From NCBI GenBank assembly GCA_963666485.2, contig CAXXUO010000001.1:128001-192000 (forward strand): a stretch of 64,000 nt of DNA. The letters run 5' to 3'. Position 1 is the first letter of the stretch. Each line of letters starts with the position of its first letter. Below the pieces are notes generated by a model. It searched no databases. It saw only the letters and a program-made list of their open reading frames with translations, and was not told the origin of the DNA. This document shows, piece by piece, positions 9,849 to 48,496 of this stretch. This stretch comes from Syntrophorhabdaceae bacterium. Lineage in GTDB: Bacteria; Desulfobacterota; Syntrophorhabdia; Syntrophorhabdales; Syntrophorhabdaceae. The position numbers were made by a program, and so were the translations under genes.

Positions 9849-10529
9849 CTACCTTACAACGACCTGAAGGCCCCTGATATTCCCCCCGCCAAACTTGGCC
9901 ATGGTTTCCGCCGCAACGTTTAATCCATCTTCGAGACACGCCGGGTCTATGCCGGGCACGGCGAATGAATAGAAGAGAACGTTGCGGGTATCGTCCCTGA
10001 CCTTTGTCTTTTCGTCGGCCCCCTGGCACAGCACGCAGACGATATCTCTTTCATCGCGCAGGACGATCTCTCCTTCTTTCAATACAAAAAGGCGGCCTCC
10101 CATTCCGGCACATTCCTCGCCATGCCGTGCAACATCCAGTATAAGAGCGCCTTCGATCCGGTCAAAATCGGTGACCGCAACGAGGATGCCGGCGCACATC
10201 TCAGCCATGAAATGAGCATCGACCATGAGGTTGTACCGCGGGAAACCGCTGTTGACCGTTCGCTTGAGATGAGCGGGAAGGGGGCAATCAAAGTCAAAGC
10301 TGTGAAAGAATTTTTCGTAGATATCGATCCGACGAGAGATGCCGGCAAGCGTTTCGCGCTTTCTCATCTTTCGCAGGAGATTGCGCCTGTATTGATCAAA
10401 TTCTGCGTTATCGCTCAGCGGGCGGCAGTCTGAAATAAGCGTCAGTCCAAATGCCACGCCCGGGTACATGGCCCCGTATGCGGATGAGATAGAGAAATTT
10501 ACCCATGCGGCCGATTGATTTTCTTGCAT
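9849..10529 (-). CDS. Stand-alone B3/4 (PheT editing-like) domain protein
   Basis: PRYNLMVDAHF, DFDRIEG, GEIVLRDERDIVC and TKVRDDTRNVLF resemble the B3/4 domain; GGAGG RBS spacing favours the 10529 start. Confidence 0.7.
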   Translation of the reverse strand: MQENQSAAWVNFSISSAYGAMYPGVAFGLTLISDCRPLSDNAEFDQYRRNLLRKMRKRETLAGISRRIDIYEKFFHSFDFDCPLPAHLKRTVNSGFPRYNLMVDAHFMAEMCAGILVAVTDFDRIEGALILDVARHGEECAGMGGRLFVLKEGEIVLRDERDIVCVLCQGADEKTKVRDDTRNVLFYSFAVPGIDPACLEDGLNVAAETMAKFGGGNIRGLQVVVR

Positions 10530-10586
10530 AAGAATCATCCTCCTGGTGTCGCTGTAGTCTTAAGAAATCATTCTTCTAAAGACACT

Positions 10587-10611
10587 GGATTCCCGCTTTC
10601 GCGGGAATGAC
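10587..10611. repeat. REP/dRS3-like palindrome GGATTCCCGCTTTCGCGGGAATGAC
   Basis: Intergenic ATTCCC-N8-GGGAAT hairpin. Confidence 0.75.
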
Positions 10612-10627
10612 GGGCAGGGGGAAGAGG

Positions 10628-10647
10628 CCTTACGCCTTACGCCCTTA
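10628..10647. repeat. Short heptamer repeat (CCTTACG)x2+
   Basis: Read directly at the 3' end of the CDF gene. Confidence 0.5.
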
Positions 10648-11445
10648 TCTCGACAGCCGCAGGATCCGCAGCGCTCCCCTGCTCAGCAATATGAAAACGA
10701 TCGTCCCAACCGCCAGGTCCGGTATCTTGGATCGGGTCAGATATACCAGGACACCCGCAATGATAACCCCGACATTGACAATGACATCCATGGATGTGAA
10801 CATCATGCTGGCCTGCATATGCGCCTCCTTGCTCTTCGAACGCTGGAGCAGGTACAGGCACAATACGTTGCCGGCGAGGGCAAAGATCGATACCCAGATC
10901 ATCGTCAGAAAATTGGGCGCCGGTTCGTGCCCGAGAAATCGCCGGATGACCTCGAGAAAACCGAGGACCGCGAGCACCGCCTGAAAATACCCCGCTATCC
11001 CTGCGATTCTTTTCTTGCGGGTGACCGAATCCCCGACTGCCAGGAGGGACAGGCTGTAGACGATGCTGTCGGCAAGCATGTCGAGGCCGTCTGCAACAAG
11101 CCCCATCGAACCCGCGATGAGGCCGGCGATCATCTCCGCTACGAAGAAGAACAGGTTGATGGCGAGCACCTGGCAAAGAACGCGGCGCTGCCGGGAGTGT
11201 TCATCGGCAGGCCCTATGTATTCGACAGCCTCGGATGAGATAAATGTCGTATCAAGCTTGAGGCCGTCGAGCGCATCGAGGATCCCGTTGTAATTGTCTG
11301 TATGGTATACCTGCAGCAGTCGTTCCGGTATATCAAAGACGAGATTCCTGATGCCGGGCAGTCCCTCAAGCCTTGAGCGGACCAACTGCTCCTCGGTCGG
11401 TCAATCCATCTTCGCTATTTTAAATGATGTCCTTATAATTGTCAT
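10645..11445 (-). CDS. HMA-domain + CDF-family cation transporter, probable selenoprotein (UGA at codon 15, 11401-11403)
   Basis: Frame extends from the 246-aa ORF to ATG 11445: MTIIRTSFKIAKMD-(TGA)-PTEEQLVRSRL, matching the MDCPxEE motif; CDF motifs ADGLDMLADS and DVIVNVGV; hairpin at 11361-11382. Confidence 0.8.
11361..11382 (-). promoter_or_regulatory. Putative bacterial SECIS element of the HMA-CDF gene
   Basis: mRNA GUCC-G-CUCAA-GGC-UUGAG-GGAC; G-starting loop about 28 nt after the UGA. Confidence 0.65.
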
Positions 11446-11458
11446 ATAGTCCGCTAAC

Positions 11459-12304
11459 CTATTTTTCGGCCTTGTCGAGGTCTTTACCAATGTCCCGGGT
11501 AAGGTCTGTCGTCAGGTAATCAAGCGTGACGGGAAGACCAACGTCGAGCCGCGGGATGTGCTGTATGCCTATACGGACCTTCTTTAGCGAACACTGCATC
11601 ACATGCCCCCCGCGCAGGCGGTCCTCGCTCAGGAAATGGACGTGGTATCCGGGTGCATTGAGTGATTCCATGAATGCAGGTGTGTAAAAGCCGGCAAGCG
11701 ATCCTCTGGCGTTGTGAACCTCAAAAACAGTCTGGTCCTTTGTCGCTTCTACGAGGGGCGTGTAGTTTTCCGATCTCGGGGCAGCCCTCAATTTCATATG
11801 TTCGAATTCACCATCAACCCGGATAGCGTAGAGCATATTCCTCGACGGGATCAGGTCGTCGAGGGTCTTTGCAAGGTCATGGGGGGCTGAATCCCCGATA
11901 TCATCAAAGGTGTCGGGGCTGAAAAAGGTCACGCAGGCAAACGGCGAATGCTGATCGTCAGATACCCCGTAAACGTTGCCGTCGGAGCGGACCTGGAACA
12001 CCCTGCCGTCGAGGACGACCATCTCGCCGTCGAGAAAATCGAACGTGCCGAGGCCGAAATCGCCATGCTGCCTGATCTCCCCGATCGTGGTATTTTCGAC
12101 ATAAAGGCCTTCGACAAGGGCATTGATCGGCGCGGAAAGGTAGACGGCATTGGTTCTTCCCGTGCTGACGAGAAATTGGCGCAGCGCCTGCTCCACCAGT
12201 TCCGAGGCGGATAGCCCTGTTCTCTCCATAGCCTCTGTAAGCTGCTTCAAGGTATCGTACGACAACAGGATCTCAAGTTCGGTCGCGTTTTCCTTGTCGG
12301 CCAT
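11459..12304 (-). CDS. budA: Alpha-acetolactate decarboxylase with N-terminal ribbon-helix-helix-like extension
   Basis: HGDFGLGTFDFLDGEM, PFACVTFF and GYHVHFLSEDRLRGGHV (three Zn-binding His). Confidence 0.85.
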   Translation of the reverse strand: MADKENATELEILLSYDTLKQLTEAMERTGLSASELVEQALRQFLVSTGRTNAVYLSAPINALVEGLYVENTTIGEIRQHGDFGLGTFDFLDGEMVVLDGRVFQVRSDGNVYGVSDDQHSPFACVTFFSPDTFDDIGDSAPHDLAKTLDDLIPSRNMLYAIRVDGEFEHMKLRAAPRSENYTPLVEATKDQTVFEVHNARGSLAGFYTPAFMESLNAPGYHVHFLSEDRLRGGHVMQCSLKKVRIGIQHIPRLDVGLPVTLDYLTTDLTRDIGKDLDKAEK

Positions 12305-12334
12305 GCATGGTCAGATCGCCCGGGGGTCCTGGTT

Positions 12335-13678
12335 CTACGTGTCGGCTTGACCCTCTTTTGCCCGATGCGATCTTCTGCGCCTCCTTCTGCGTTTTTTCCG
12401 CACAGGGGGGCCGGCTGGTTCCGGGGCCTCCTCCGAAGCCGGGTTTTCTATAATGAAACTTTCCCACCACTGCAGGATACCGTCATACTCCCTGTGTGAT
12501 TGTGCGGTGATGCTCAAGTAAATAAGCGCTTCCGAAAACTCGGGCCTCCCGGCGATGGTTCTTGGACGTTTTACAGGGATCCTGCAAATACCGGACTTCA
12601 GTGTAAGAATGGCTGCAAGGCGCCCAGCCACCCGCCCGGGGATGTGAGCGGTTTGCGCAATTTCGGCAAGAAAGGCCGCGCATGACGCATCGAGTGCCTG
12701 GCGCAGCGGTATACCATCCTGGTGGCGCTCGAGCGCCTCTTTTTCGATAGACTCACCAAATAAAGCGGTTATAAGCAGGGCCGGTGAAACCGGCGCCCCG
12801 TTGCTGACAAGCTCGTCGATAGCACGTAGATTCATTTCAATGGTGTGAAAGAGTCCGGGGTCTGCATGGACCCTCACGCTTAATCCCGGAAAAAGTGCGG
12901 CCAGCAGACCGCTTTTTTCAAGGAGAAAAAATGTCGGCGACGCGAAACCCAGAAGAAAGAGTTTCTGTATCTCCTCGTAAAGCCGAGACGGGGACACCCG
13001 TGCTATGACCGGGGCAAGCTTCACGATAGTGTGCCAGGATTCGTCTTCTATTTCAAAACCGTGTGATGCCGCGAAGCGGACCGCACGGAGCATACGGACA
13101 GGGTCCTCGGTGAATCGCACGAAGGGGTCCCCGATGGAGCGAATGAGGCGTTCCTTGAGGTCTGCGAGCCCTGTGCTGAAATCAATGACGGACAGATCGG
13201 CAATATTATAAACGAGCGCATTGACCGTAAAATCGCGCCGGATGGCATCTTCTTCGGGCGTTCCAAAGATATTGTCCGCAAGCACCATACCGTGCTCATC
13301 TTTCGCATGTCGCACATGCCGGCGCCTTCCCTCTTCAACCTGAGGGATCTCTTCGATATCCGAAGCCTCTGCTGCACGGCGGAAAGTTGATACCTCTATG
13401 ATCTCATCCTGAAAACGGACATGGGCGAGCCTGAACCGTCTGCCGATCAGCCTGCAATTATGAAACAGCCGCTTTATCTGGCCAGGGGTCGCATTGGTCC
13501 CGATGTCAAAATCTTTTGGGGTGCGTCCCAACATGAGGTCGCGCACACACCCGCCGACAAGGTACGCGACAAAGCCCCGCGAATGAAGACGGTACAGGAT
13601 GCGCAGGGCATTCACACTGATATGCCGGCGAGAGATGCGATGCTCTTTTTTCGGGACTATTTTAGGTTTAGATTCCAT
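12335..13678 (-). CDS. pcnB: Poly(A) polymerase I
   Basis: [18 protein letters not shown], the PAP signature [20 protein letters not shown] and EDPVRMLR; Arg-rich C-terminus. Confidence 0.92.
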
Positions 13679-13691
13679 AGTACAGGTAACG

Positions 13692-13769
13692 GTATTAGGT
13701 TATAGGTTATGGGGAAACGGCCAAAAAAGCAATATAATAGGCGATGGGCGATGGGCGATGGGCGATGGG
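13692..13769. repeat. Heptamer repeats (AGGTTAT, GGGCGAT x4); left arm complementary to the 13802-13950 array
   Basis: ataggcgat gggcgat gggcgat gggcgat ggg at 13736-13769. Confidence 0.8.
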
Positions 13770-13801
13770 AAAACACATAAAAACCGCGAAATTGTCAGCA
13801 A

Positions 13802-13950
13802 CCTATCGCCTATCGCCTATCGCCTATCGCCTATTGCCTATCGCCTATCGCCTATCGCCTATTGCCTATCGCCTATCGCCTATCGCCTATTGCCTATCGC
13901 CTATTGCCTATTGCCTATTGCCTATTGCCTATTGCCTATTGCCTATTGCC
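13802..13950. repeat. Heptamer microsatellite CCTAT(C/T)G x21
   Basis: 21 consecutive units counted (11 CCTATCG, 10 CCTATTG). Confidence 0.97.
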
Positions 13951-13952
13951 CT

Positions 13953-13992
13953 AATTAAACAGGGTATCCATCCATCGGATAGATACCCTGTT
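13953..13992 (-). terminator. Intrinsic terminator of the bam operon
   Basis: Hairpin CAGGGTATC...GATACCCTG followed by TTTAATT on the minus strand, about 25 nt after the bamF stop. Confidence 0.7.
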
Positions 13993-14014
13993 GTCATCAC
14001 GTAATTGTTTCTTT

Positions 14015-14848
14015 CTACTCTGCTGCTTCCTTCGCCTTCTTTACCACCGCCCTCTGGTCGGGGGGAGGAGGAGGCGGGACGGCGCCCTCCATCTTCGATA
14101 TCGCCCGGAACTTCGGCGGGCAGACCTCGAAGCAGGTGCCGCACCGGATGCATTTGTCCTGATCGATGATGTGGATCTGCTGCTTTGCGCTGATGACTGC
14201 ATCAACGGGGCAGCGCCGTGCGCAGGTCGTACAGGCCTGGCATTTCTCGGGGTCGATCCAGTAGGAGAAGGGCTCGGTGAACTGCTTCGTCACTTCTTCG
14301 AGCGTAAAGTAGTTCTCGTGCCCGTCATGGCCCTCCAGGCGCCCTGCGAGCTTCTCGCGGTTCGCGATCTTGAGGTACGGGAGCTTCGCCTTGACGAAAT
14401 CAAGTTTCTTCTTGAGCTCTGCCGGTTCTATGCCTTCGGCCTTGCCCAGGGGGCCTATGCCTTTGATAGTCTTCACGAAGGCATTCACCGATTCCGTGAA
14501 GACGTTCGCCTCGGCGCCCGACATAAAGTTGATGCGCAGCCTCTCGGGGTTCACGCCGATGTATTCCAAGATGCGCTTCATGAGAAGCACCATGTTCTGT
14601 GCCTGGTAGTTGCCATGGGTGATGTAGTTGCACTCGCCCAGGTGGCATGCGCCCATGAAGACGCCGTCGATGCCGTTCTCGAACGCACGAATGATAAAAC
14701 CCATATCCACGCGCCCCGAACACATGACGCGGATGATCCTCATTTCTGTTGTATATTGCAGTCTGGACACGCCAGCCAGGTCAGCGGCTCCGTACGCTCA
14801 CCAGTTGCAGGCGAAGCCGAGGACTCTCGGTTTAAATTTTGTGCTCAT
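14015..14848 (-). CDS. bamF: Benzoyl-CoA reductase subunit BamF (MvhD-like selenoprotein, UGA at codon 17, 14798-14800) with C-terminal 2x[4Fe-4S] domain
   Basis: AAGGAGG RBS and ATG 14848: MSTKFKPRVLGFACNW-(TGA)-AYGAADLAGVSRLQY, then RVMCSGRVD and GACHLGECNY; two C-terminal CxxCxxCxxxCP motifs. Confidence 0.9.
14765..14791 (-). promoter_or_regulatory. Putative SECIS element of bamF
   Basis: GGA-GCC-GCU-(GACCU)-GGC-U-GGC-GUG-UCC bulged hairpin right after the UGA. Confidence 0.55.
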
Positions 14849-14874
14849 TATGTCCGACCTCCTTTATAGACTTG

Positions 14875-17800
14875 CTACTCGGCCGCCGCGGCCGCATCTA
14901 TCAACTTCTCGATCTCGCCGTCAGGTACGACAACGTCGATCTCGCTCACCATTTCCTCATCTGTATAATGGCGCAGCTGGATGGCGCCTGTCGGGCACTT
15001 GGTGTTGCACAGGCCGTCACCTTTGCAGAGGACCGGATTGACGAACACTTTCCTGCCCGCCTTCGTATCCCTGACCTCGAGCGCCCCGTATGTGCAGATC
15101 TCGGCGCAGGCGCCGCAGCCCATACACTTCTTTTCGTCCACCGCGCAGACGGAACCCGATGCCACGACGATATCATTGGCGAGGAGGGTCAGCACCCTGC
15201 CTGCCGCGCCGTAGGACTGGTTGATCGTCTCCTGGATGAACTTCGGGTAATGTGCAAGGCCGCACAGGTACACGCCGTCGGTCGCAAACTCGACCGGGCG
15301 CAGTTTCACGTGGGCTTCCTTGAAGAAACCGTCGGGGGAGAGCGTCACCTTGAACTGGTTCGCCACTTCCTTTGTAGCCGCGGAGGGAATGACGGCGGCT
15401 GCGAGTGCTATGATGTCCGCGTCGAGTTCGAGCTTCTTGCCGAGGATATAGTCGATAACCGTCACTTTCAGGACGTCGCGCTTGTCTTCGGACTTGCCCG
15501 GTTCGATCTCGGGCGGGTTCTCGGGTTCGTAGCGGATGAACTTCACGCCCTTGTCCGCTGCCAGCCTGTAGTAGTCTTCATTGAACCCGTAGGTGCGGAC
15601 ATCCCTGAAGAGCATGTAGATGTCCATGTCGGGGTTCTTTTCCTTGAGAAGGAGCGCGTTCTTGATCGATTCGGAACAGCATATCCTCGAGCAGTAGTTG
15701 CGTTCCTCGTTCCTGCAGCCGACGCACTGGATCATGACGAGTCCTTTCGCGCCGACGACGGCCTCATCCTCTGCCACGATCTTCTCCTCGAGTTCGAGGT
15801 GCGTGAGCACCCGCGGGTCCTGCCCGTAGAGGTATTCGGTCGGGGTGTACATGTCGACGCCGATCGCAATGACCGATGCGCCGTGTTTTATAACTGTCTC
15901 CCCCCTGTCGGACTTGATAGTGGTTACGAAGTTGCCAACGTAGCCGGTCGCATCCGTGATCTGCGCATTGTGATAGACGTGAATGAGGGGGTTCTTGTAG
16001 ATCTTCGATTTAAGGTCTTTCAGGTATTCCTGGACGTCGAGGCCCTGGAGGGTCGTGTGGATCTTGCGGGCGATGCCGCCGAGCTCTTTGTCTCTCTCGA
16101 CGAGGAAAACCTCGTGGCCCTGGTTCGCTATGGACATCGCTGCGTTCATACCGGCGATGCCGCCGCCGACAACGAGGGCACGCTTGTCGACGGGGAGGTC
16201 GAATTCCTGGAGGGGCTCGAGCTTGCAGGCCCGTGCAACGGACATCCTGATGATGTCATGGGCCTTCTCCGTCGCCTCTTCCTTTTCCTTCTGGTGGACC
16301 CAGGAGTTGTGCTCCCGTATGTTCGCCATTTCGTAATAGTACTGGTTGATGCCTGCCTCGCGCAGGGTGTCGCGGAAGAGGGGCTCCAGGGTTCTCGGGG
16401 AGCATGCCGCAACGACAACGCGGTTCAAGCCTTCTTCTTTAATCTTGTCCGTTATCTCACGGGCGGAGTTCGTCGCGCAGGAGAAGAGCTGTTCCTGGGA
16501 ATAGACGACGTTGGGGAGTGTCTTGCAATATTCCACCGTGCCCGGGACGTTGACGATACGGCCGATGTTCGCGCCGCAGTGGCAGACGAAGACGCCGACC
16601 CGCGGTTCTTCCTGGGAGACGTCCTTCTCTTCAGGATATATTCTCTCCTTCGAGAGGTTGCCGCGACGGTACTGCAGCATCTCGCCGATCTGGCTTCCCG
16701 CGCCGGAGGCACTGAAGACCGATTCCGGGATGTCGATGGGGCCCTGCAGGGCGCCTGAGACGAAGATGCCCTTGCGGTTCGTCAGCATGGGGTTTCTCGG
16801 GTCGATGTTGCAGAAGTTGTGCGACTCGAGTTCGATACCGAACTTCTTCGCGATGTCTTCCACTTCCTTCGGGGGATTCATGCCGATCGAGAGGACGACC
16901 ATGTCGAACTCTTCCTCGATGACCCCTTCCTCGGGCGTTGAGTATCTGATTGTCACGTTGTGCGTGACCGGGTCTTCTTTCACTATGGAGGGATAGCTCC
17001 TGAAGAAGCGTATGCCGGGCAGTGCCTCGGTCCTCTCGTAGTAGCGCTCGAAGTCCTTGCCGTACGCGCGCACGTCGTTGTGGAAGATCGTGCATTTCGC
17101 GTCCGCGTCGTGGTCCTTCGTCAGGATGACCTGCTTCTGGGTGTACGTACAGCACACCGCCGAGCAGTAAGAGTTGCCGCCCTCAATCACCTGGCGGGAG
17201 CCGATGCACTGGATCCACGCGACATTGTGCGGGTGCTTGAGGTCCGACTTCCGGAGTATCTCGCCACCGTAGGGGCCGGTGGAGCACAGGAGCCTTTCGT
17301 AGTCCATGCTGGTGACGACGTTCTGGAAGTCACCGTAGTGGTACTCCTCACGGACCTTCGGGTCAAAGGGCTCAAAGCCGGGGGCGAGGATGATCGCGCC
17401 GACGTTGATCTCTTTCTTCTCGGGCTTCTGGTTGAGATCGATCGCGTTCTGCTTGCAGACCGCTTCGCATATCTTGCATTTCTTCTCTTTGAGGTAGAGG
17501 CAGCTCTCGTCTATGTAGGTGATGAGCGGGATGGCCTGTGCAAAGTAGACGTGGACCGCCTTGTTGAGCGATATGTCCTGGTTGTACTGGTCCGGGTACT
17601 TCACCGGGCAGTACTCCACGCATACCGTGCAGCCCGTACACAGGTCTTCCTTGATGTAGCGGGGCTTCCTCAGTAATGTTACGTTAAAATCTCCTGCATC
17701 TCCCTCTACGTGATCAACTTCCGTATAGGTGAGAACTTCGATGTTGGGGTGCCGGCCGACCTCGACCAGCTTCGGTGCGAGAATTCACATCGAGCAGTCG

Positions 17801-18015
17801 TTCGTCGGGAAGGTCTTGTCGAGCTGGGCCATGTGCCCGCCGATCGAAGGCGCCTTCTCGACGAGGTAGACCTTGAACCCCGCGGTCGCCAGGTCAAGGG
17901 AGGCCTGGATACCGCTTATGCCGCCGCCGACGACCAGGACATCGCCAAAGTCGCCGGTGGGACCTGTCTTGCACAGGTTCTTAATATTCTCGTTGAGCGA
18001 TATTACGTTTTCCAC
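14875..18015 (-). CDS. bamE: Benzoyl-CoA reductase subunit BamE (HdrA-like bifurcating flavoprotein), selenoprotein (UGA at codon 77, 17785-17787), about 1046 aa
   Basis: The 76-aa ORF ([18 protein letters not shown]) and the 914-aa ORF are in one frame joined by a single [23 protein letters not shown]; second FAD motif VVGGGIAG; many Fe-S motifs. Confidence 0.92.
17751..17770 (-). promoter_or_regulatory. Putative SECIS element of bamE
   Basis: GCUGGUCG-(AGGU)-CGGCCGGC 8-bp stem starting 14 nt after the UGA. Confidence 0.7.
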
Positions 18016-18051
18016 TGTGTATCACCTCATCGTGGTTTGTCTTATATATCG

Positions 18052-19218
18052 TTACTCCATCACCTCGGCGATGACCTCGGTGATGTCCTTTATCGTTATG
18101 TCGTCCTCGTGGCCCGTGACAAGGCGCGAGTCCTCGAGTGCCGTGATGCAGTAAGGGCACGCCGTGACGAGCTCTGTCGTCCCTTCGGCGAGCGCCTGGT
18201 CGACGCGGATGTTCGAGAAGCGCTCGTGCTTCTCCGTCTCCGCCCACACCCTGCCGCCGCCCATGCCGCAGCACGTGGAATCCATGCGGGCCTCGGGAAG
18301 TTCCGCAAGCTCGACGCCCGGGACAGCCTTCAATACCTCGCGCGGGTCGTCGAAGATGCCGTTGTGACGTCCCAGGTAGCACGGGTCGTGGTAGGAGACC
18401 TTCTTCTGGTACTCCTTCTTGATCGTGAGCTTGCCCTCTTTTATGAGCTTAGGCAGGAGCTCAGAGATATGGACGACCTCGAAGTCAACCTTGAACTCGG
18501 GGTACTCGTTCTTGAATGTGTGATAGCAATGGGGCGAGGAAACCAGTATCTTTTTCACGCCGGCATCGATGAAGGCCTTGATGTTCTCCCTCGCGAGCTT
18601 CTTGAAGAGGTCCTCGTTGCCCGTCCTGCGGATGGACTCCCCGCAGCAAACCTCTTTCTCGCCCAGAATGCCGAACGTCACGCCGGCTTTCTTCAGGACC
18701 TTTGCGGTCGCCTGAGCCACCTTTTTGAGGCGCGGGTCGTAACTGCAGTAGCAGCACGGGAAGTACAAATACTCCATATCTTCCTTGTAGGGCTTGACGC
18801 CTAAGCCCGCGGCCCACTCGGCGCGGGTCTTCCTGTCTTCGTTAAAGGGGTTGCCCTGGCCGTTCAAGCCCGACGCGATGGTCTTGTATGATTTGACGGG
18901 GCCCGCGAAGACGCCGTATCCCGTTGCCATCCTGCGGATAGCGATCATGTCATCGATCTGCTTGACATCGCGGGGGCATCTCTGGGGGCATTTGCCGCAG
19001 GTCGTGCAGCGCCAGATCTCTTCCTTCTCGATCTCGGACAAGCCGAAGACGGCTTCCCTGATGAGCTTGCGCATCGAGAACTTACGGACCTTGTTCCAGG
19101 GACAGACTGTGTCGCATTTGCCGCACTGGTAACAATATTTTACAGCCTCGCCGCCCTTCTCCCTGATCTCGTCTATTACTTCCTGGAAAGGGGCTACGAT
19201 CTCCATTTTCTTTGCCAT
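18052..19218 (-). CDS. bamD: Benzoyl-CoA reductase subunit BamD (HdrC/D-like Fe-S protein with CCG domains)
   Basis: CYQCGKCDTVCP, CTTCGKCPQRCP, EVCCG, YHDPCYLGRHN, CCGMGGG and TACPYC motifs; operon position. Confidence 0.9.
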   Translation of the reverse strand: MAKKMEIVAPFQEVIDEIREKGGEAVKYCYQCGKCDTVCPWNKVRKFSMRKLIREAVFGLSEIEKEEIWRCTTCGKCPQRCPRDVKQIDDMIAIRRMATGYGVFAGPVKSYKTIASGLNGQGNPFNEDRKTRAEWAAGLGVKPYKEDMEYLYFPCCYCSYDPRLKKVAQATAKVLKKAGVTFGILGEKEVCCGESIRRTGNEDLFKKLARENIKAFIDAGVKKILVSSPHCYHTFKNEYPEFKVDFEVVHISELLPKLIKEGKLTIKKEYQKKVSYHDPCYLGRHNGIFDDPREVLKAVPGVELAELPEARMDSTCCGMGGGRVWAETEKHERFSNIRVDQALAEGTTELVTACPYCITALEDSRLVTGHEDDITIKDITEVIAEVME

Positions 19219-19242: not shown

Positions 19243-19788
19243 TTACTGCTGGTCCTTCTGGGACATCCGGGTCAGAGTGTCGGCCAGTTTGTCCATACCG
19301 TATTTATCGATCATGGACTTAAGGCTGTTCTCCACCTCTTCCGCCTCGAGACTTTCCTCGACCTCTTCTTCCCTTTCTTCATAGATAAGGGCGTCGTTCA
19401 AGCACCACTTAACGCACAAAGGTTTTTCAAGAGGCGGGTCGTCTTCGCACATATCGCACTTGAGCGGGAGGCCGGAATCCGGTTCTTTGAATGCGTCCCG
19501 GGAGGGGCACGATGCCCTGCAGAACCCGCACTCGTCGTACTCTTTGCCGTCGATGATGTACTGGTCGCGGCCCATGCACTCGGCTGCAGTATACTCACCG
19601 GCATACACCGGAACGTAGACGTCACGGATTGGATCGCGGATCATGCGGATGCGGGACCGTGCCGGGTTATTGCTTGAATACTTCGGATTAGCATGGAAGG
19701 CGGAGCAGATCACTTCGCATGCCCGGCAGCCATTGCACTTATCAAGATCGATCTTGATTTTCTTAACTATCTTCTTAGTCTTGGCCAT
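19243..19788 (-). CDS. bamC: Benzoyl-CoA reductase subunit BamC (3x[4Fe-4S] protein)
   Basis: KCNGCRACEVICSAFH, ECGFCRASCPSR and KEPDSGLPLKCDMC motifs; overlaps the bamB stop. Confidence 0.92.
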   Translation of the reverse strand: MAKTKKIVKKIKIDLDKCNGCRACEVICSAFHANPKYSSNNPARSRIRMIRDPIRDVYVPVYAGEYTAAECMGRDQYIIDGKEYDECGFCRASCPSRDAFKEPDSGLPLKCDMCEDDPPLEKPLCVKWCLNDALIYEEREEEVEESLEAEEVENSLKSMIDKYGMDKLADTLTRMSQKDQQ

Positions 19789-21745
19789 CTTTGTATATCC
19801 CTCTCTGTTCAAAGTCTTCGGCAACATAGCCCAGATCCAAATTCTTCAAAGTTTCCTTTTTAGGAATACCATCCATGTTCCAACCTTTGAAATTGTAGTA
19901 TGCGTCGAGAAGTTTCTCTTCCAGTTCCGGGAACCTCTTCTTCCAGTGGTCTTCGGGCGGCTTCTCGTCTGCCCTGCGGAGCCCTCGCCTTACGTTGATG
20001 GAACGGACGAGGGTGCGGTTCCGTGCGTAGACCTTCTTTATATCGTCTTCGCTCATATCGATGCCCGTCGATGCAGAGACCATCTTCGGGTAATTATGCA
20101 CATGGTACGGCGGCTTCAGCGGGAAGGAGGACAGGCCGGCACAGACTCCGAGGGAGTCGTCGAGATAGTGCATCATCTCCTGCCAATCCACGATATCTAC
20201 CGACATGTCGACGGTCGGGAAGTACGGGTTCGATTTCTCGCCGCGCATTTCCCATTCCATGACGATCTGTTTGAATTTGTCGTCGGGGCACTGCGGCCAA
20301 TCCCGGATGAAATTCTCTTTCTCTTCCTGCGTCGCAAACGGCGCCTGCGGGAACTGCCCTTCGATCTGGGTAATGTTTATCTTCTCGCCGGTCGCATACA
20401 TCAGGAAGTAGACCGGGTTGAGCATGCCAAGTTTCAAGGGAAGCTGCTCGTGTTTCTTGATATTGTTGTGGGCATATATGTCCGCGCCGTTTCCGATCTT
20501 CTGCGCGGCCCAGTATGTTCCGTCGGCCAGGATATCGCCGATGCCTTCGCGGCGGACGAGCCTGTCGAGGAGCCAGTAGAATTTGCCTTCGTTGTCTGTC
20601 GGGCAGCCTTCGAAATCCTTGTCTGAGAGGATGCCGGCTTCCCTGAGCTCGTAAGCGAATGCCAGCGTCTGCGGTACGGAGAACCCGTCGACCCCGTATT
20701 CCGTTGCCTTCTGTGCGATCCTGAAACCGAAGTCGAGGTCTTCGACAAACGCGGCCATTGAATACGTGAGTTTGGAGAAGCATTTCATCATGTACGTCGA
20801 GATGCCCGGGACGGATATGATGGCGCCGCATTTCATCGGGCAGTTGTAGCAGCTGATGAGGCGCTTGCGCACGCTCAGCTGGGTTTCTTTCCATTTCTTT
20901 TCGATCTCGGCGTTCCAGAAATCTTTCCGCCGTGCCCGGGAGTTCCCCCACATGAAGTTTTCCGTATGCCATTTCTCGTCGACATGGAGCATTTCCTGCG
21001 GTGAGCCAAGGCCCTGGAGGATTGTCATGACGTTCGGGACCGGGTTTTCGTTCCTGTATTTTATGTACTCGAGGACCTCGTTGCACAGGTCGATAAATTC
21101 CGCAGGCCGTGCCAGGTTAATGTCTTTCGTTCCCCTGACAGCGATGGCCTTCACGCCTTTATCGCCCATAACGGCACCAAGCCCGAGGCGGCTTGCGCTT
21201 GAACGGCCCTGCTCGATCGAGGCCATGAAGACCCTGTTCTCGCCGGCAAGACCGATAGCTGCCACCTGGCAGTTCGGCTCGTTGAGTTCCTTCTTGATGA
21301 GCTCCTGCGTCTCGACGGCGCCCTTCCCTTTCAAGTGGGAAGCGTCGCGGATCTCCACCTTGTCGTTGTTTATCCAGATGTAGACAAGGCTCGGTGATTT
21401 CCCGCGAAGGACGATCTTATCATAGCCTGCATATTTCAATTCCGGCGCGAAGAAGCCGCCCATCATCGAATACCCCATCAACAAAGTCTGGGGTGAGTAC
21501 GCGGTTATGATGGTCCTGTTTGCGCCAGGGGCAGGTGTACCGCCAAAGAGGCCGGCACTGAACGTAAGAGGGATATCGGCGTCGAAAGGATCTATCTCGG
21601 GGGGAACCCTATCCCATAAAAGCTTGGAACTGGTCCCCAAACCGCCAAGATAAAGTTCCGTATCCTTGGGATCGGTCTCGACACGCTCGACATTGCCTGT
21701 GCTTAAATCGATTTCCAGGTTAAATCCGTTTTCTCCATACCTCAT
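19775..21745 (-). CDS. bamB: Class II benzoyl-CoA reductase catalytic tungsten subunit BamB (AOR family)
   Basis: Closely resembles Geobacter BamB as recalled: TELYLGGLGT, GSPQEMLHVDEKWHTENF, ISCYNCPMKC, MMKCFSKLTY, HNNIKKHEQLPLKL, NITQIEGQFPQ. Confidence 0.95.
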   Translation of the reverse strand: MRYGENGFNLEIDLSTGNVERVETDPKDTELYLGGLGTSSKLLWDRVPPEIDPFDADIPLTFSAGLFGGTPAPGANRTIITAYSPQTLLMGYSMMGGFFAPELKYAGYDKIVLRGKSPSLVYIWINNDKVEIRDASHLKGKGAVETQELIKKELNEPNCQVAAIGLAGENRVFMASIEQGRSSASRLGLGAVMGDKGVKAIAVRGTKDINLARPAEFIDLCNEVLEYIKYRNENPVPNVMTILQGLGSPQEMLHVDEKWHTENFMWGNSRARRKDFWNAEIEKKWKETQLSVRKRLISCYNCPMKCGAIISVPGISTYMMKCFSKLTYSMAAFVEDLDFGFRIAQKATEYGVDGFSVPQTLAFAYELREAGILSDKDFEGCPTDNEGKFYWLLDRLVRREGIGDILADGTYWAAQKIGNGADIYAHNNIKKHEQLPLKLGMLNPVYFLMYATGEKINITQIEGQFPQAPFATQEEKENFIRDWPQCPDDKFKQIVMEWEMRGEKSNPYFPTVDMSVDIVDWQEMMHYLDDSLGVCAGLSSFPLKPPYHVHNYPKMVSASTGIDMSEDDIKKVYARNRTLVRSINVRRGLRRADEKPPEDHWKKRFPELEEKLLDAYYNFKGWNMDGIPKKETLKNLDLGYVAEDFEQRGIYKDGQD

Positions 21746-33028: not shown

Positions 33029-33898
33029 ATGAAGAACGGCAGTTATTTTATCCCGCGTGAGCAGATCAAGGCGTTCATGAACCCCGGTGCGATGAATAAC
33101 GAGGAGGGCCTCTATATTCTGTGGGAAACCGATCCCGAGGCTGCGCGGCGCGTATTGCCGCCCATGCTCGATCTCATCGATCCCGACCATGCCATCGCCA
33201 TGGTGTACGTTGTCAACATCCGCGAACCCACCTTCGCGCCGTGGTATATGGAGGGGGGCATCTGCCTGTTATGCCGGTATGGCGAGAAGGGGGGCGCCTA
33301 TTTCCTGAACCTTCAGCTCTCCGGCCCGGGTGCGCCGTCGGGCCTCACCAGCGGGCGGGAATTATCCGGCCTTCCCAAGAAGCTATGCGAGCGCATCGTC
33401 GTCGAGCGCAATGATAAGTGGGCCCACGCACTCATCGAGAGCAAGGGCCGGCGGATCTTCTCCGTCGAGGTTGAGATCGGGGCATATAACGACCCGGTCA
33501 TGGAATACATGTACCAGAACGCGGGGCCGGGCCGGCAGGACAGGGGCACGTGCATGCTGTTCCAGTATGACTCCGCGCAAGCTCCCGACGGCCAGATCGC
33601 CTTCCCCCGGGTCCGGCTCGTCAATTATGACAGCGTCACCGACTATCAATCGTGGGAGCCGGCTACCATTACATCCCTCGAGATGGAACCGTCCCTCGAC
33701 AACCCCTGGGCGGAGATGGCGGTGGTAAAGCCCCTGGGTGCGGCATACAGCGTCAATTCCAACTGGGTGGCAGGGGTCACGCCCCTGGCCGAATTCGAGG
33801 GCGATGAGGCAGACAACTTGATCTCATACCTCTTCTCGGGCCGGTGGGACCGTTCCACCCTCACCACGAGCCACACCCAGCGGTATGGACAATTTTAA
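33029..33898 (+). CDS. Acetoacetate decarboxylase family protein
   Basis: WETDPEAARRVLPP, YMEGG and GRELSGLPKKL (Schiff-base Lys region). Confidence 0.8.
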   Translation: MKNGSYFIPREQIKAFMNPGAMNNEEGLYILWETDPEAARRVLPPMLDLIDPDHAIAMVYVVNIREPTFAPWYMEGGICLLCRYGEKGGAYFLNLQLSGPGAPSGLTSGRELSGLPKKLCERIVVERNDKWAHALIESKGRRIFSVEVEIGAYNDPVMEYMYQNAGPGRQDRGTCMLFQYDSAQAPDGQIAFPRVRLVNYDSVTDYQSWEPATITSLEMEPSLDNPWAEMAVVKPLGAAYSVNSNWVAGVTPLAEFEGDEADNLISYLFSGRWDRSTLTTSHTQRYGQF

Positions 33899-47416: not shown

Positions 47417-48245
47417 TCATACGCCCGGTTTGTCCCGGTACCTGTGGATCACCGTGCCGCCCATTATGGTCATGCCGACCTGAAAGAAATAACCTTTCAC
47501 TGGCTTAATAGCGCCCAGGTCCGTCAATTCTTCAAAGTCTGAAGGAAAGAAACGGATATCCGCATCGCCCTCCCAGGCGTCACCGATCTTTGCATTCGTA
47601 ACATTGCTGATGAGAAGGTCGTGCACAAGGGGCTTTTCCTGGTCTTCATAATCCGGGAAATGGCGCATGAGGTAGAACTTGAACGGGGGGACTTTGTTCG
47701 GGGGAACCTGTTTTTTCAAGGTCAGGGAACCCTCGACGATCCTCTCTTCGTGGGACACGCATATGCCCTTTATTTTTGCACCGGTCTTTTTGCCGCCCGT
47801 GACGGGCATCAATTCATGGAGCTTTGTGATATGGGACCCTGCCGAGTTTTTTGGGAAACCCCTGGATAAAGCCCCTTAAGAGAGTGAAATCATTATCCAC
47901 CCAGATGTACGGCACATAGTAGCCGGGAACGCCTTTGAACTGGCAGCCGACCATGATAATGCATTCATGATACAACGACCTCTCGGGATTGACAGAGGCA
48001 AGATCGGGATTCGCATCGCTCGCGGAGACCCATTCAACGAACCAGACCACCCCTTCGCCGGGGTTGGGGCCCGGTTCAAGGGGAGGTGGCAATAACGCCC
48101 TCAATTTTTTCTCGTTTGCCTTGAAGACGAGGTGCATGACATCCCCGCCGTAGTGCCACGGGGGCGCGTCAATGACAGGCGCTTTTCCTTTGGGGGACAG
48201 GGGCAGAATATAGCCTTTGAGCGGAAAAGATCTTTTCGTTGCCAT
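47417..48245 (-). pseudogene. Acetoacetate decarboxylase family gene split by a +1 frameshift near 47833-47835
   Basis: Removing one base of GGG joins ...QGFPKKLGRV to HITKLHELMPVTGG... giving one protein of about 275 aa. Confidence 0.8.
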
Positions 48246-48496
48246 AGCTTTCCTCCTGGAGATCCAGCTTAAAATGATTGTCCCACTGATCATCCGCATT
48301 GTCAATGAGCCGGGACTCGAAACCGATTCCCGGGAAAACGGGCATCATGCCGGAATAAGGATGTGGTAACGGTCGCGATGAAGATATGAGAGATCAGCCT
48401 TTCAGGAACTTTGTTTTTCCCTAAGTGACCGATCGTTGTAACGTTGAAAACAGCCTGATATACTTGCTGTATACATTAAAAGCGGAGGCGGTGCCT

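Follow-up and report, generated by a model that had tools for sequence, protein, structure and literature searches.

The window analysed here is a 64-kb stretch of DNA from a Syntrophorhabdaceae bacterium. Its minus strand carries an 801-nt reading frame that runs from ATG 11445 to TAA 10645 and contains one in-frame TGA, at codon 15. Read with this TGA as selenocysteine (Sec, U), the frame encodes a protein that joins an HMA domain to a CDF membrane domain, and judging from its sequence we consider 11445-10645 likely to be a selenoprotein gene. The features of this gene, and of two further genes with in-frame TGA codons in the same window, are as follows.

10645..11445, minus strand: HMA(Sec)-CDF transporter gene, a predicted selenoprotein of 266 amino acids including U15 (translation with TGA read as U)
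11443..11445, minus strand: start codon ATG, taken as the true start, aligning where full-length Cys homologues begin (M-x-K-T-T-F...)
11401..11403, minus strand: in-frame TGA on the invariant Cys of K-M-D-C-P-x-E-E, predicted to encode Sec (U15)
11383..11385, minus strand: TTG chosen as start by gene callers, regarded here as a false start, codon L21, after an SD-like GAGGAG
11360..11383, minus strand: bSECIS-like hairpin of 5 bp, a bulged G and 5 bp, with loop GGC
11224..11439, minus strand: N-terminal HMA domain, residues 3-74, ferredoxin-like beta-alpha-beta-beta-alpha-beta
10651..11211, minus strand: six-helix CDF membrane domain, residues 79-265, with no C-terminal cytoplasmic domain
10645..10647, minus strand: stop codon TAA, closing the 801-nt frame from ATG 11445
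14015-14848, minus strand: MvhD/FlpD gene, with TGA at 14800-14798, U22 in F-A-C-N-W-U
14875 to about 18000, minus strand: HdrA gene, with TGA at 17787-17785, U in T-N-D-C-S-M-U-I-L-A-P-K

Gene callers open the transporter gene at TTG 11385, codon 21 of the longer frame, and predict a product of 246 amino acids; the window protein is stored in databases in that form (P0002). The initial annotation had noted that the frame extends upstream of this TTG, through a single TGA at 11401-11403, to ATG 11445, and we recovered the same coordinates. ATG 11445 lies 13 nt past the stop of the upstream acetolactate decarboxylase gene, and the 266-residue read-through product would begin MTIIRTSFKIAKMD-U-PTEEQLVRSRLEG, continuing PTEEQLVR after U. 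An SD-like GAGGAG is found 3 nt before the in-frame TTG, which makes a truncated protein physically possible; the same six nucleotides are the codons of the conserved E-E. Orthologues in two related genomes (L001 and L002) are likewise 801 nt long and colinear with the window gene, and the three genomes show no indels and no other stops in the frame. In L002 a CTG takes the place of TTG 11385, and a protein begun at the next start there would have only 221 amino acids.

We next read the codon at the position of the window TGA in the 80 related loci listed by a contig search. It was TGC or TGT in 77 loci, TAC (Tyr) in L008, and TGA in two. Of the Cys loci, 75 were found by a motif regular expression, and the other two (L063 and L076) carry Cys in slightly different motifs. 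The two TGA loci are L001 (82% identity) and L002 (75% identity), which have the TGA at the same codon, with in-frame MTVLKTSFKISKMD and MTIFRTSFKISKMD just upstream. The TGA thus falls exactly on the Cys of the MDCPxEE motif, as had been proposed, and the comparison supplies the Cys/TGA pairs in relatives that the proposal had called for.

The protein databases gave a matching picture. Among the best 120 homologues, 107 have Cys in K-M-D-C-P-x-E-E and one is the window's own 246-residue ORF, while the 12 closest others (75-89% identity, 221-246 amino acids) all start no earlier than the Cys position. In a maximum-likelihood tree built from the last 205 residues, the 13 N-truncated sequences, window included, form one clade with support of 100/100 and a stem length of 0.49. 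The TGA was read in DNA for the two relatives L001 and L002, and for the 12 N-truncated clusters it is deduced from the truncation. A TGA private to this assembly had been named as a finding that would speak against Sec; instead the same codon is present in two other genomes, and the 12 truncated clusters are monophyletic with the window.

Purifying selection acts on both sides of the TGA, over distances that range from a dS of about 0.8 to saturation (pairwise dS among window, L001 and L002 of 0.84-2.9, or not computable, -1). For codons 1-14, dN was 0.08-0.13 and 6 of the 14 codons differ only synonymously among the three sequences; dN/dS was 0.065 in the one computable pair, dS being not computable (-1) for the other two. 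Across the same three sequences, dN/dS was 0.04-0.25 for codons 16-78 and 0.04-0.08 for the membrane domain. The neighbourhood is conserved as well, with genes for a polyA polymerase, an acetolactate decarboxylase (absent from the L002 neighbourhood), the HMA-CDF protein and a B3/4-domain protein, and an opposite-strand RND efflux operon. This shared gene order indicates that a single chromosomal gene, orthologous across a Syntrophorhabdaceae-type clade, is involved.

The initial annotation had also placed a hairpin with a G-starting loop about 28 nt downstream of the TGA. We found this hairpin at 11383-11360, inside the coding sequence; it begins 17 nt past the UGA, its loop lies 28 nt past the UGA, and its A-GGC-U segment matches the N1-G-[G/U]-N-N2 pattern. 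The criteria for a bSECIS given in the legend of Fig. 2 of PMC13188914 are an apical loop of 3-9 nt, an upper stem of 4-16 bp, a G in the first two loop positions, a UGA-to-loop distance of 16-37 nt and a minimum free energy of -7.5 kcal/mol or below. In all three genomes the hairpin falls within these limits, with loop GGC, a 5-bp upper stem, a spacing of 28 nt, and energies for the 36-nt segment of -11.4 (window), -9.0 (L001) and -9.5 kcal/mol (L002). RNAalifold recovered the hairpin and kept nine pairs in 3/3 sequences. In the alignment of these three sequences, which contains a single double-sided change, one lower-stem pair varies as G-C/G-U/A-U, and another goes from U-A to U-G. Among the N-truncated clusters, P0005 and P0013 differ at residues encoded within the stem (R25G and E27D, respectively). 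Conservation and bSECIS fit, both of which the initial annotation had wanted checked, therefore bear it out, with one compensatory pair. Moreover, apart from the 19-nt hairpin core, no stretch of 12 nt or more in the gene is invariant among the three genomes, and only 32% of its third positions are.

In the equivalent segment of 76 non-TGA loci, many of which are low-GC Bacteroidota, mean energy was -2.48 kcal/mol (sd 1.66), and only 1 of the 76 reached -9. The Syntrophorhabdales-type Cys forms (L003-L008) fold weakly too, at -0.7 to -5.4 kcal/mol. One Cys-form locus, L034, reaches -9.9 kcal/mol in the same segment, through a different hairpin whose loop does not start with G.

Taken by itself, the hairpin is weak evidence and not beyond chance. 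A simplified bSECIS test was passed by 210 of the 2045 TGA trinucleotides in the window (a background of 10.3%), and the MvhD site failed it in its fixed 36-nt form, at -6.8 kcal/mol; the test is therefore crude in both directions. Folding z-scores against shuffled sequences were +0.55 to +1.04, and these positive values mean that the hairpin carries no thermodynamic signal of its own. An Rfam scan of 10500-18200 at E<=10 returned no SECIS family, and since the HdrA and MvhD sites were likewise without a hit, this negative is uninformative. The combination of a TGA on an invariant Cys column, its presence in two more genomes, and a conserved hairpin specific to the TGA genes is, however, far beyond chance.

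Two other UGA-containing genes in the window had been put forward as a sign that the organism uses Sec, and both proved real. The MvhD/FlpD and HdrA genes carry TGA at what alignment identifies as classical Sec sites. U22 of MvhD aligns to a Cys of the solved homologue 5odc_D, and once the TGA is read through, the match to the FlpD profile of Pfam covers its whole length and climbs from 119.8 to 156.5 bits. The HdrA U aligns to a Cys of the solved homologue 8rvv_A, and its TGA is followed by a hairpin of -14 kcal/mol whose loop is AGGU. TGA also ends 14 of the 44 Pfam-supported genes in the window; as it is an ordinary stop elsewhere, recoding would be site-specific within a standard code. ARAGORN found no tRNA gene, hence no tRNA-Sec, in the 64-kb window, and the Pfam hits of the 56 window ORFs scanned included no Sec-machinery family. 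In the text available of the Haft 2022 preprint (10.1101/2022.07.06.499078), Syntrophorhabdus aromaticivorans is among the genomes with a SAO selenoprotein cassette.

The full-length protein combines two recognizable parts. Pfam Cation_efflux (PF01545) matched residues 94-263 (E 4.4e-17; 62.9 bits, cutoff 26.6). The HMA profile (PF00403) matched residues 8-48 of the whole protein at E 7.8e-4 and 20.2 bits, below the gathering cutoff of 24.8, and scored 23.5 bits with the N-domain alone, just under that cutoff; among the N-domains of the family, 24/24 matched it at E <= 0.01 (best 6.5e-7). From NCBIfam there were matches to generic CDF models only, TIGR01297 aligning over profile positions 2-193 of 285 with 71.2 against a cutoff of 82.35. 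Pfam gave no ZT_dimer hit in the full protein.

An AlphaFold2 model computed from 94 aligned sequences (mean pLDDT 84.5) showed an N-domain with secondary structure E3-10, H16-26, E32-38, E43-48, H53-61 and E66-74, followed by six long helices, and the chain ends right after helix 6. In Foldseek comparisons the N-domain matched domain 1 of CCS, Atx1 and a plant HIPP HMA domain (rmsd 1.3-2.9 A), and the membrane part matched ZnT1/4/7/8 and YiiP (best E 5.6e-7). The C-terminal domain of CDF proteins has a metallochaperone-like fold too, so that the N-terminal HMA domain may replace the missing C-terminal one. When aligned to ZnT8 (6xpe), TM2 has D122-x-x-x-D126, whereas TM5 has F216 where ZnT8 has His, with D220 kept. 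We take the TM2 (H/D)xxxD and TM5 HxxxD residues of ZnT8 to be its transport site. Having F216-x-x-x-D220 in place of H-x-x-x-D in TM5, the protein may be unusual in its transport selectivity.

The model places residue 15 in the loop that immediately precedes helix 1 of the HMA fold, the site that the first Cys of M-x-C-x-x-C occupies in HMA domains. M-x-C-x-x-C is the canonical HMA motif. The N-domain motif of this family, M-D-(C/U)-P-x-E, is without that canonical pair, its second Cys position being an invariant Glu. In an alignment of 24 sequences, the invariant N-domain residues were M13, D14, C/U15, E18, E19, L26, L35, F37, D38, R42, L44, H48 and L62.

The best solved-structure match to the N-domain profile was 2kkh_A, 'Putative heavy metal transporter' (E 0.0015), which we take to be the N-terminal domain of Arabidopsis HMA4, a plant P1B-ATPase with a Zn-binding CCxxE motif. 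Its C-C-x-x-E (g-i-C-C-t-s-E-v) aligned to the D-C-x-x-E of the HMA-CDF proteins (k-m-D-C-p-s-E-E), so that the Cys-Cys of the one stands against the Asp-Cys/Sec of the other.

From these observations we think it very probable that the gene encodes an HMA-CDF selenoprotein in which U15, inserted by means of SelB, Sec-tRNA and a bSECIS, takes the place of the metal-loop Cys, where it would bind a divalent thiophilic ion. UGA codon 15 would be decoded as Sec by SelB and Sec-tRNA, directed by the bSECIS hairpin that starts 17 nt downstream. The residue replaced by Sec would be the one invariant Cys in D-C-P-x-E-E, the metal-binding loop where HMA helix 1 begins. In the cytosol, a divalent thiophilic cation would be bound jointly by the selenolate and by three invariant residues, Asp14, Glu18 and Glu19; at neutral pH, selenolates are completely ionised. 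Mixed soft/hard sites suit Zn, Cd or Pb, as in the ZntA-type D-C-x-x-C and the HMA4-type C-C-x-x-E; by analogy with such DCxxC and CCxxE sites, Zn, Cd or Pb would be the most likely ion. The HMA domain could then pass its ion on to the membrane part of the protein; alternatively, it could sense the ion and thereby regulate transport. We infer Sec insertion at residue 15, the direction of transport and the metal; the role of Sec15 as a direct, soft-metal rather than redox ligand is predicted from the alignment to HMA metal-binding loops.

We weighed this reading against the view that translation genuinely ends at the TGA, the product being a 246-residue CDF protein from TTG 11385 with a decapitated HMA domain and the 14 upstream codons a remnant or leader peptide. 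Such a view gains from the GAGGAG 3 nt upstream of the TTG and from the gene callers, which picked TTG 11385 or a later start in 13/13 members of the clade. A sigma-70-like match (10/12) at 11445-11417, overlapping the start codon, could also begin a transcript just before the TGA. We judged this match to be chance, with 4 such sites against 2.6 expected in shuffles and, as we read the alignment, poorer promoter-like hexamers in L001 and L002. The GAGGAG, for its part, merely codes for the invariant E-E, and the CTG in L002 moves the next start to one that would cost 45 residues. The selection on the upstream 14 codons and on the rest of the HMA domain likewise opposes termination, as does the use of TGA, never TAA or TAG, in 3/3 genomes examined; moreover, an HMA domain deprived of strand 1 and the metal loop would be useless. 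A true stop is accordingly very unlikely in our estimate. A further reading, which we regard as improbable, gives the UGA a second function besides coding for Sec: depending on selenium, it would switch between two isoforms of the transporter. With Sec-tRNA present, the full-length HMA(Sec)-CDF protein would be made, and D-U-x-x-E-E, in which the selenolate would be the only soft ligand of the HMA domain, would gate or feed an exporter of thiophilic metals (Cd, Hg, Pb). When selenium is scarce, translation would stop at the UGA and resume at the TTG that follows GAGGAG, 18 nt further on, to give an HMA-less, unregulated exporter. If true, such a switch would couple metal efflux to the selenium supply, and the CDF superfamily would have its first selenoprotein.

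It is also conceivable, but unlikely, that Sec is inserted and is redox-active, as a selenenylsulfide switch or in metalloid reduction, rather than a static metal ligand. The window protein and P0003 have a Cys at residue 91, and as far as the accessible text of two reviews goes (PMC13188914, PMC9312934), redox proteins make up most of the bacterial selenoproteins known. Members of the Sec clade do not all share Cys91, however, and in an alignment of 28 sequences the other relatives have Trp or Arg there. A redox role is opposed further by the lack of a CxxC or UxxC partner, since an invariant Glu stands where the HMA motif has its second Cys, and by neighbouring invariant residues that are carboxylates typical of metal sites. 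The least probable account, and one to which we give hardly any weight, is that read-through of the UGA involves no Sec (Trp or Cys being inserted by a near-cognate tRNA, or some other recoding taking place) or that the TGA reflects an assembly error or recent pseudogene. The lack of a tRNA-Sec gene within the 64-kb window would fit it. Against it stand the retention of the TGA in three independent assemblies at dS of at least 0.8 with both flanks intact, the conserved hairpin with bSECIS geometry, the two classical Sec genes in the same window, and the normal use of TGA as a stop elsewhere in the window. We prefer the reading in which codon 15 would be decoded as Sec and Sec15 would act as a metal ligand.

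The Cys-form homologues share the architecture of the Sec protein. These HMA-CDF 'cation transporter' proteins (WP_015031207.1 on an Emticicia plasmid, WP_087814222.1 on a Psychrobacter plasmid, and others in Syntrophorhabdales and Bacteroidota) are 55-70% identical to it and have in common with the Sec form the invariant M-D-C-P-x-E-E and F-D-x-x-x-R motifs, H48 and the motifs of the membrane domain. Their genes have TGC or TGT, and no hairpin in the equivalent segment. Many are plasmid-borne, and 916 plasmid records matched the HMA-CDF protein, all below 60% identity; unlike these, the Sec form is chromosomal, with conserved synteny in one Syntrophorhabdaceae-type clade. The names of the plasmid homologues and two annotated neighbourhoods gave only the generic 'cation transporter' and no clue to the metal.

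Selenoproteins are already described among metal exporters. One of them, a P1B-type ATPase, is, as far as its available description extends, also a heavy-metal exporter, with Sec at the first Cys of its UxxC motif and an implied role for Sec in metal binding rather than redox catalysis, as proposed here. That UxxC motif presumably lies in an N-terminal HMA-type domain. The ATPase has a UxxC pair, whereas the HMA-CDF protein is secondary-active, is without ATPase domains, and has a single chalcogen in a U-x-x-E flanked by Asp/Glu. The ATPase family appears in a table of PMC1976440. The SO_0444 Cu/Zn efflux transporter (NF033936, U-S-C) is, in the accessible parts of 10.1101/2022.07.06.499078 and PMC13188914, likewise a membrane protein for metal efflux, with a minority Sec clade among Cys homologues; it belongs, however, to an unrelated permease family with Sec in a membrane-protein motif, and the HMA-CDF protein had no match to NF033936. 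Searched in full against Pfam and NCBIfam at E <= 0.1, the HMA-CDF protein matched neither the P1B-ATPase model TIGR01525 nor NF033936 nor MerT (PF02411), and no NCBIfam selenoprotein model matched it.

The transporter-related selenoproteins named in the available text of the 2026 review PMC13188914 include a putative mercuric transport protein, YeeE/YedE, Sao ABC components and the SO_0444 Cu/Zn efflux transporter (UxC), and the review mentions neither CDF nor PF01545, PF00403 or TIGR01297. The corresponding portion of a 2022 review (PMC9312934) draws the same picture. Judged by titles and abstract openings, full-text searches of the openly accessible literature returned no paper on a CDF, HMA-domain or CzcD selenoprotein. 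The initial annotation could recall no Sec in a CDF fusion, and the sources checked here, to the extent given, agree. This appears to be the first selenoprotein reported in the CDF transporter family and a new selenoprotein family, with Sec in place of a metal-binding Cys in an efflux protein, a kind of substitution already known from other exporters.

On this reading, the CDF superfamily would join the short list of Sec-containing transporters, while the understanding of Sec decoding would be unchanged. The close Sec and Cys relatives, with a single chalcogen among carboxylates, would offer a clean test of selenium in metal coordination versus redox catalysis. With a model specific to the family, annotation pipelines could call HMA(Sec)-CDF genes correctly; at present, all database copies in the 13-member clade are annotated without at least the first 20 residues, and the metal-binding loop is lost with them.

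Cysteine forms of the HMA-CDF architecture, which carry Cys where the transporter encoded in the window has its predicted Sec (residue 15), were found in 916 plasmid records, all with less than 60% identity to the window protein. The plasmid hosts included Acinetobacter, Ralstonia, Moraxella, Flavobacterium and others, and when genomes of Bacteroidota and Syntrophorhabdales were compared, the identity between their Cys-form proteins was also about 60%. Together, the plasmid records and this level of identity between Bacteroidota and Syntrophorhabdales suggest that the Cys form has spread widely by horizontal transfer. Among the Cys-clade relatives, the codon for the otherwise invariant Cys/Sec residue is TAC (Tyr) at one genomic locus (L008:3031), giving K-M-D-Y-P-S-E-E; this locus also has H in place of R in the conserved F-D-I-P-x-R motif. 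In the database homologue P0007 (373 aa) and at locus L007:2845-3100, a tandem pair of HMA-type M-D-C-x-S-E-E modules precedes the CDF domain.

Just downstream of the transporter gene, we observed a short intergenic hairpin with one degenerate further copy in the window, against 0.01 chance matches expected:

10589-10608, minus strand: 20-nt hairpin, a perfect palindrome with a 7-bp GC-rich stem and a GAAA loop
48326-48345, plus strand: weaker, degenerate second copy (3 mismatches)

Possible identities for this hairpin are a small extragenic repeat and a terminator.

Two further genes require read-through of a TGA at a classical Sec site; they are listed here with two genes beside them:

14015-14848, minus strand: MvhD/FlpD gene, TGA at 14800-14798
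14875 to about 18000, minus strand: long HdrA-like gene, TGA at 17787-17785
18052-19218: HdrB/C-like CCG-domain gene, adjoining these two
19775-21745: neighbouring aldehyde:ferredoxin oxidoreductase gene

Close to the probable 5' end of the HdrA-like gene there is a further in-frame TGA, corresponding to U10 in the frame from 18051.

A separate repeat structure was present upstream of the polyA-polymerase gene:

13700-13870, minus strand: about 10 tandem copies of a GATAGGC-like heptamer, then roughly four copies of its complement

The two sets of heptamers pair into a long and very stable hairpin (-72.3 kcal/mol, z -6.2). MicroRNA-like Rfam matches on both strands of this region were judged spurious.

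Sequences of the acetoacetate decarboxylase (ADC) family were located at two places:

33029-33898: intact ADC-family gene
47417-48305, minus strand: an ORF of 163 aa adjoining one of 131 aa in another frame

Since the 163-aa ORF covers the N-terminal half of the ADC Pfam profile (3-116) and the 131-aa ORF the C-terminal half (119-237), the pair looks like a single ADC gene that has been frameshifted or split.
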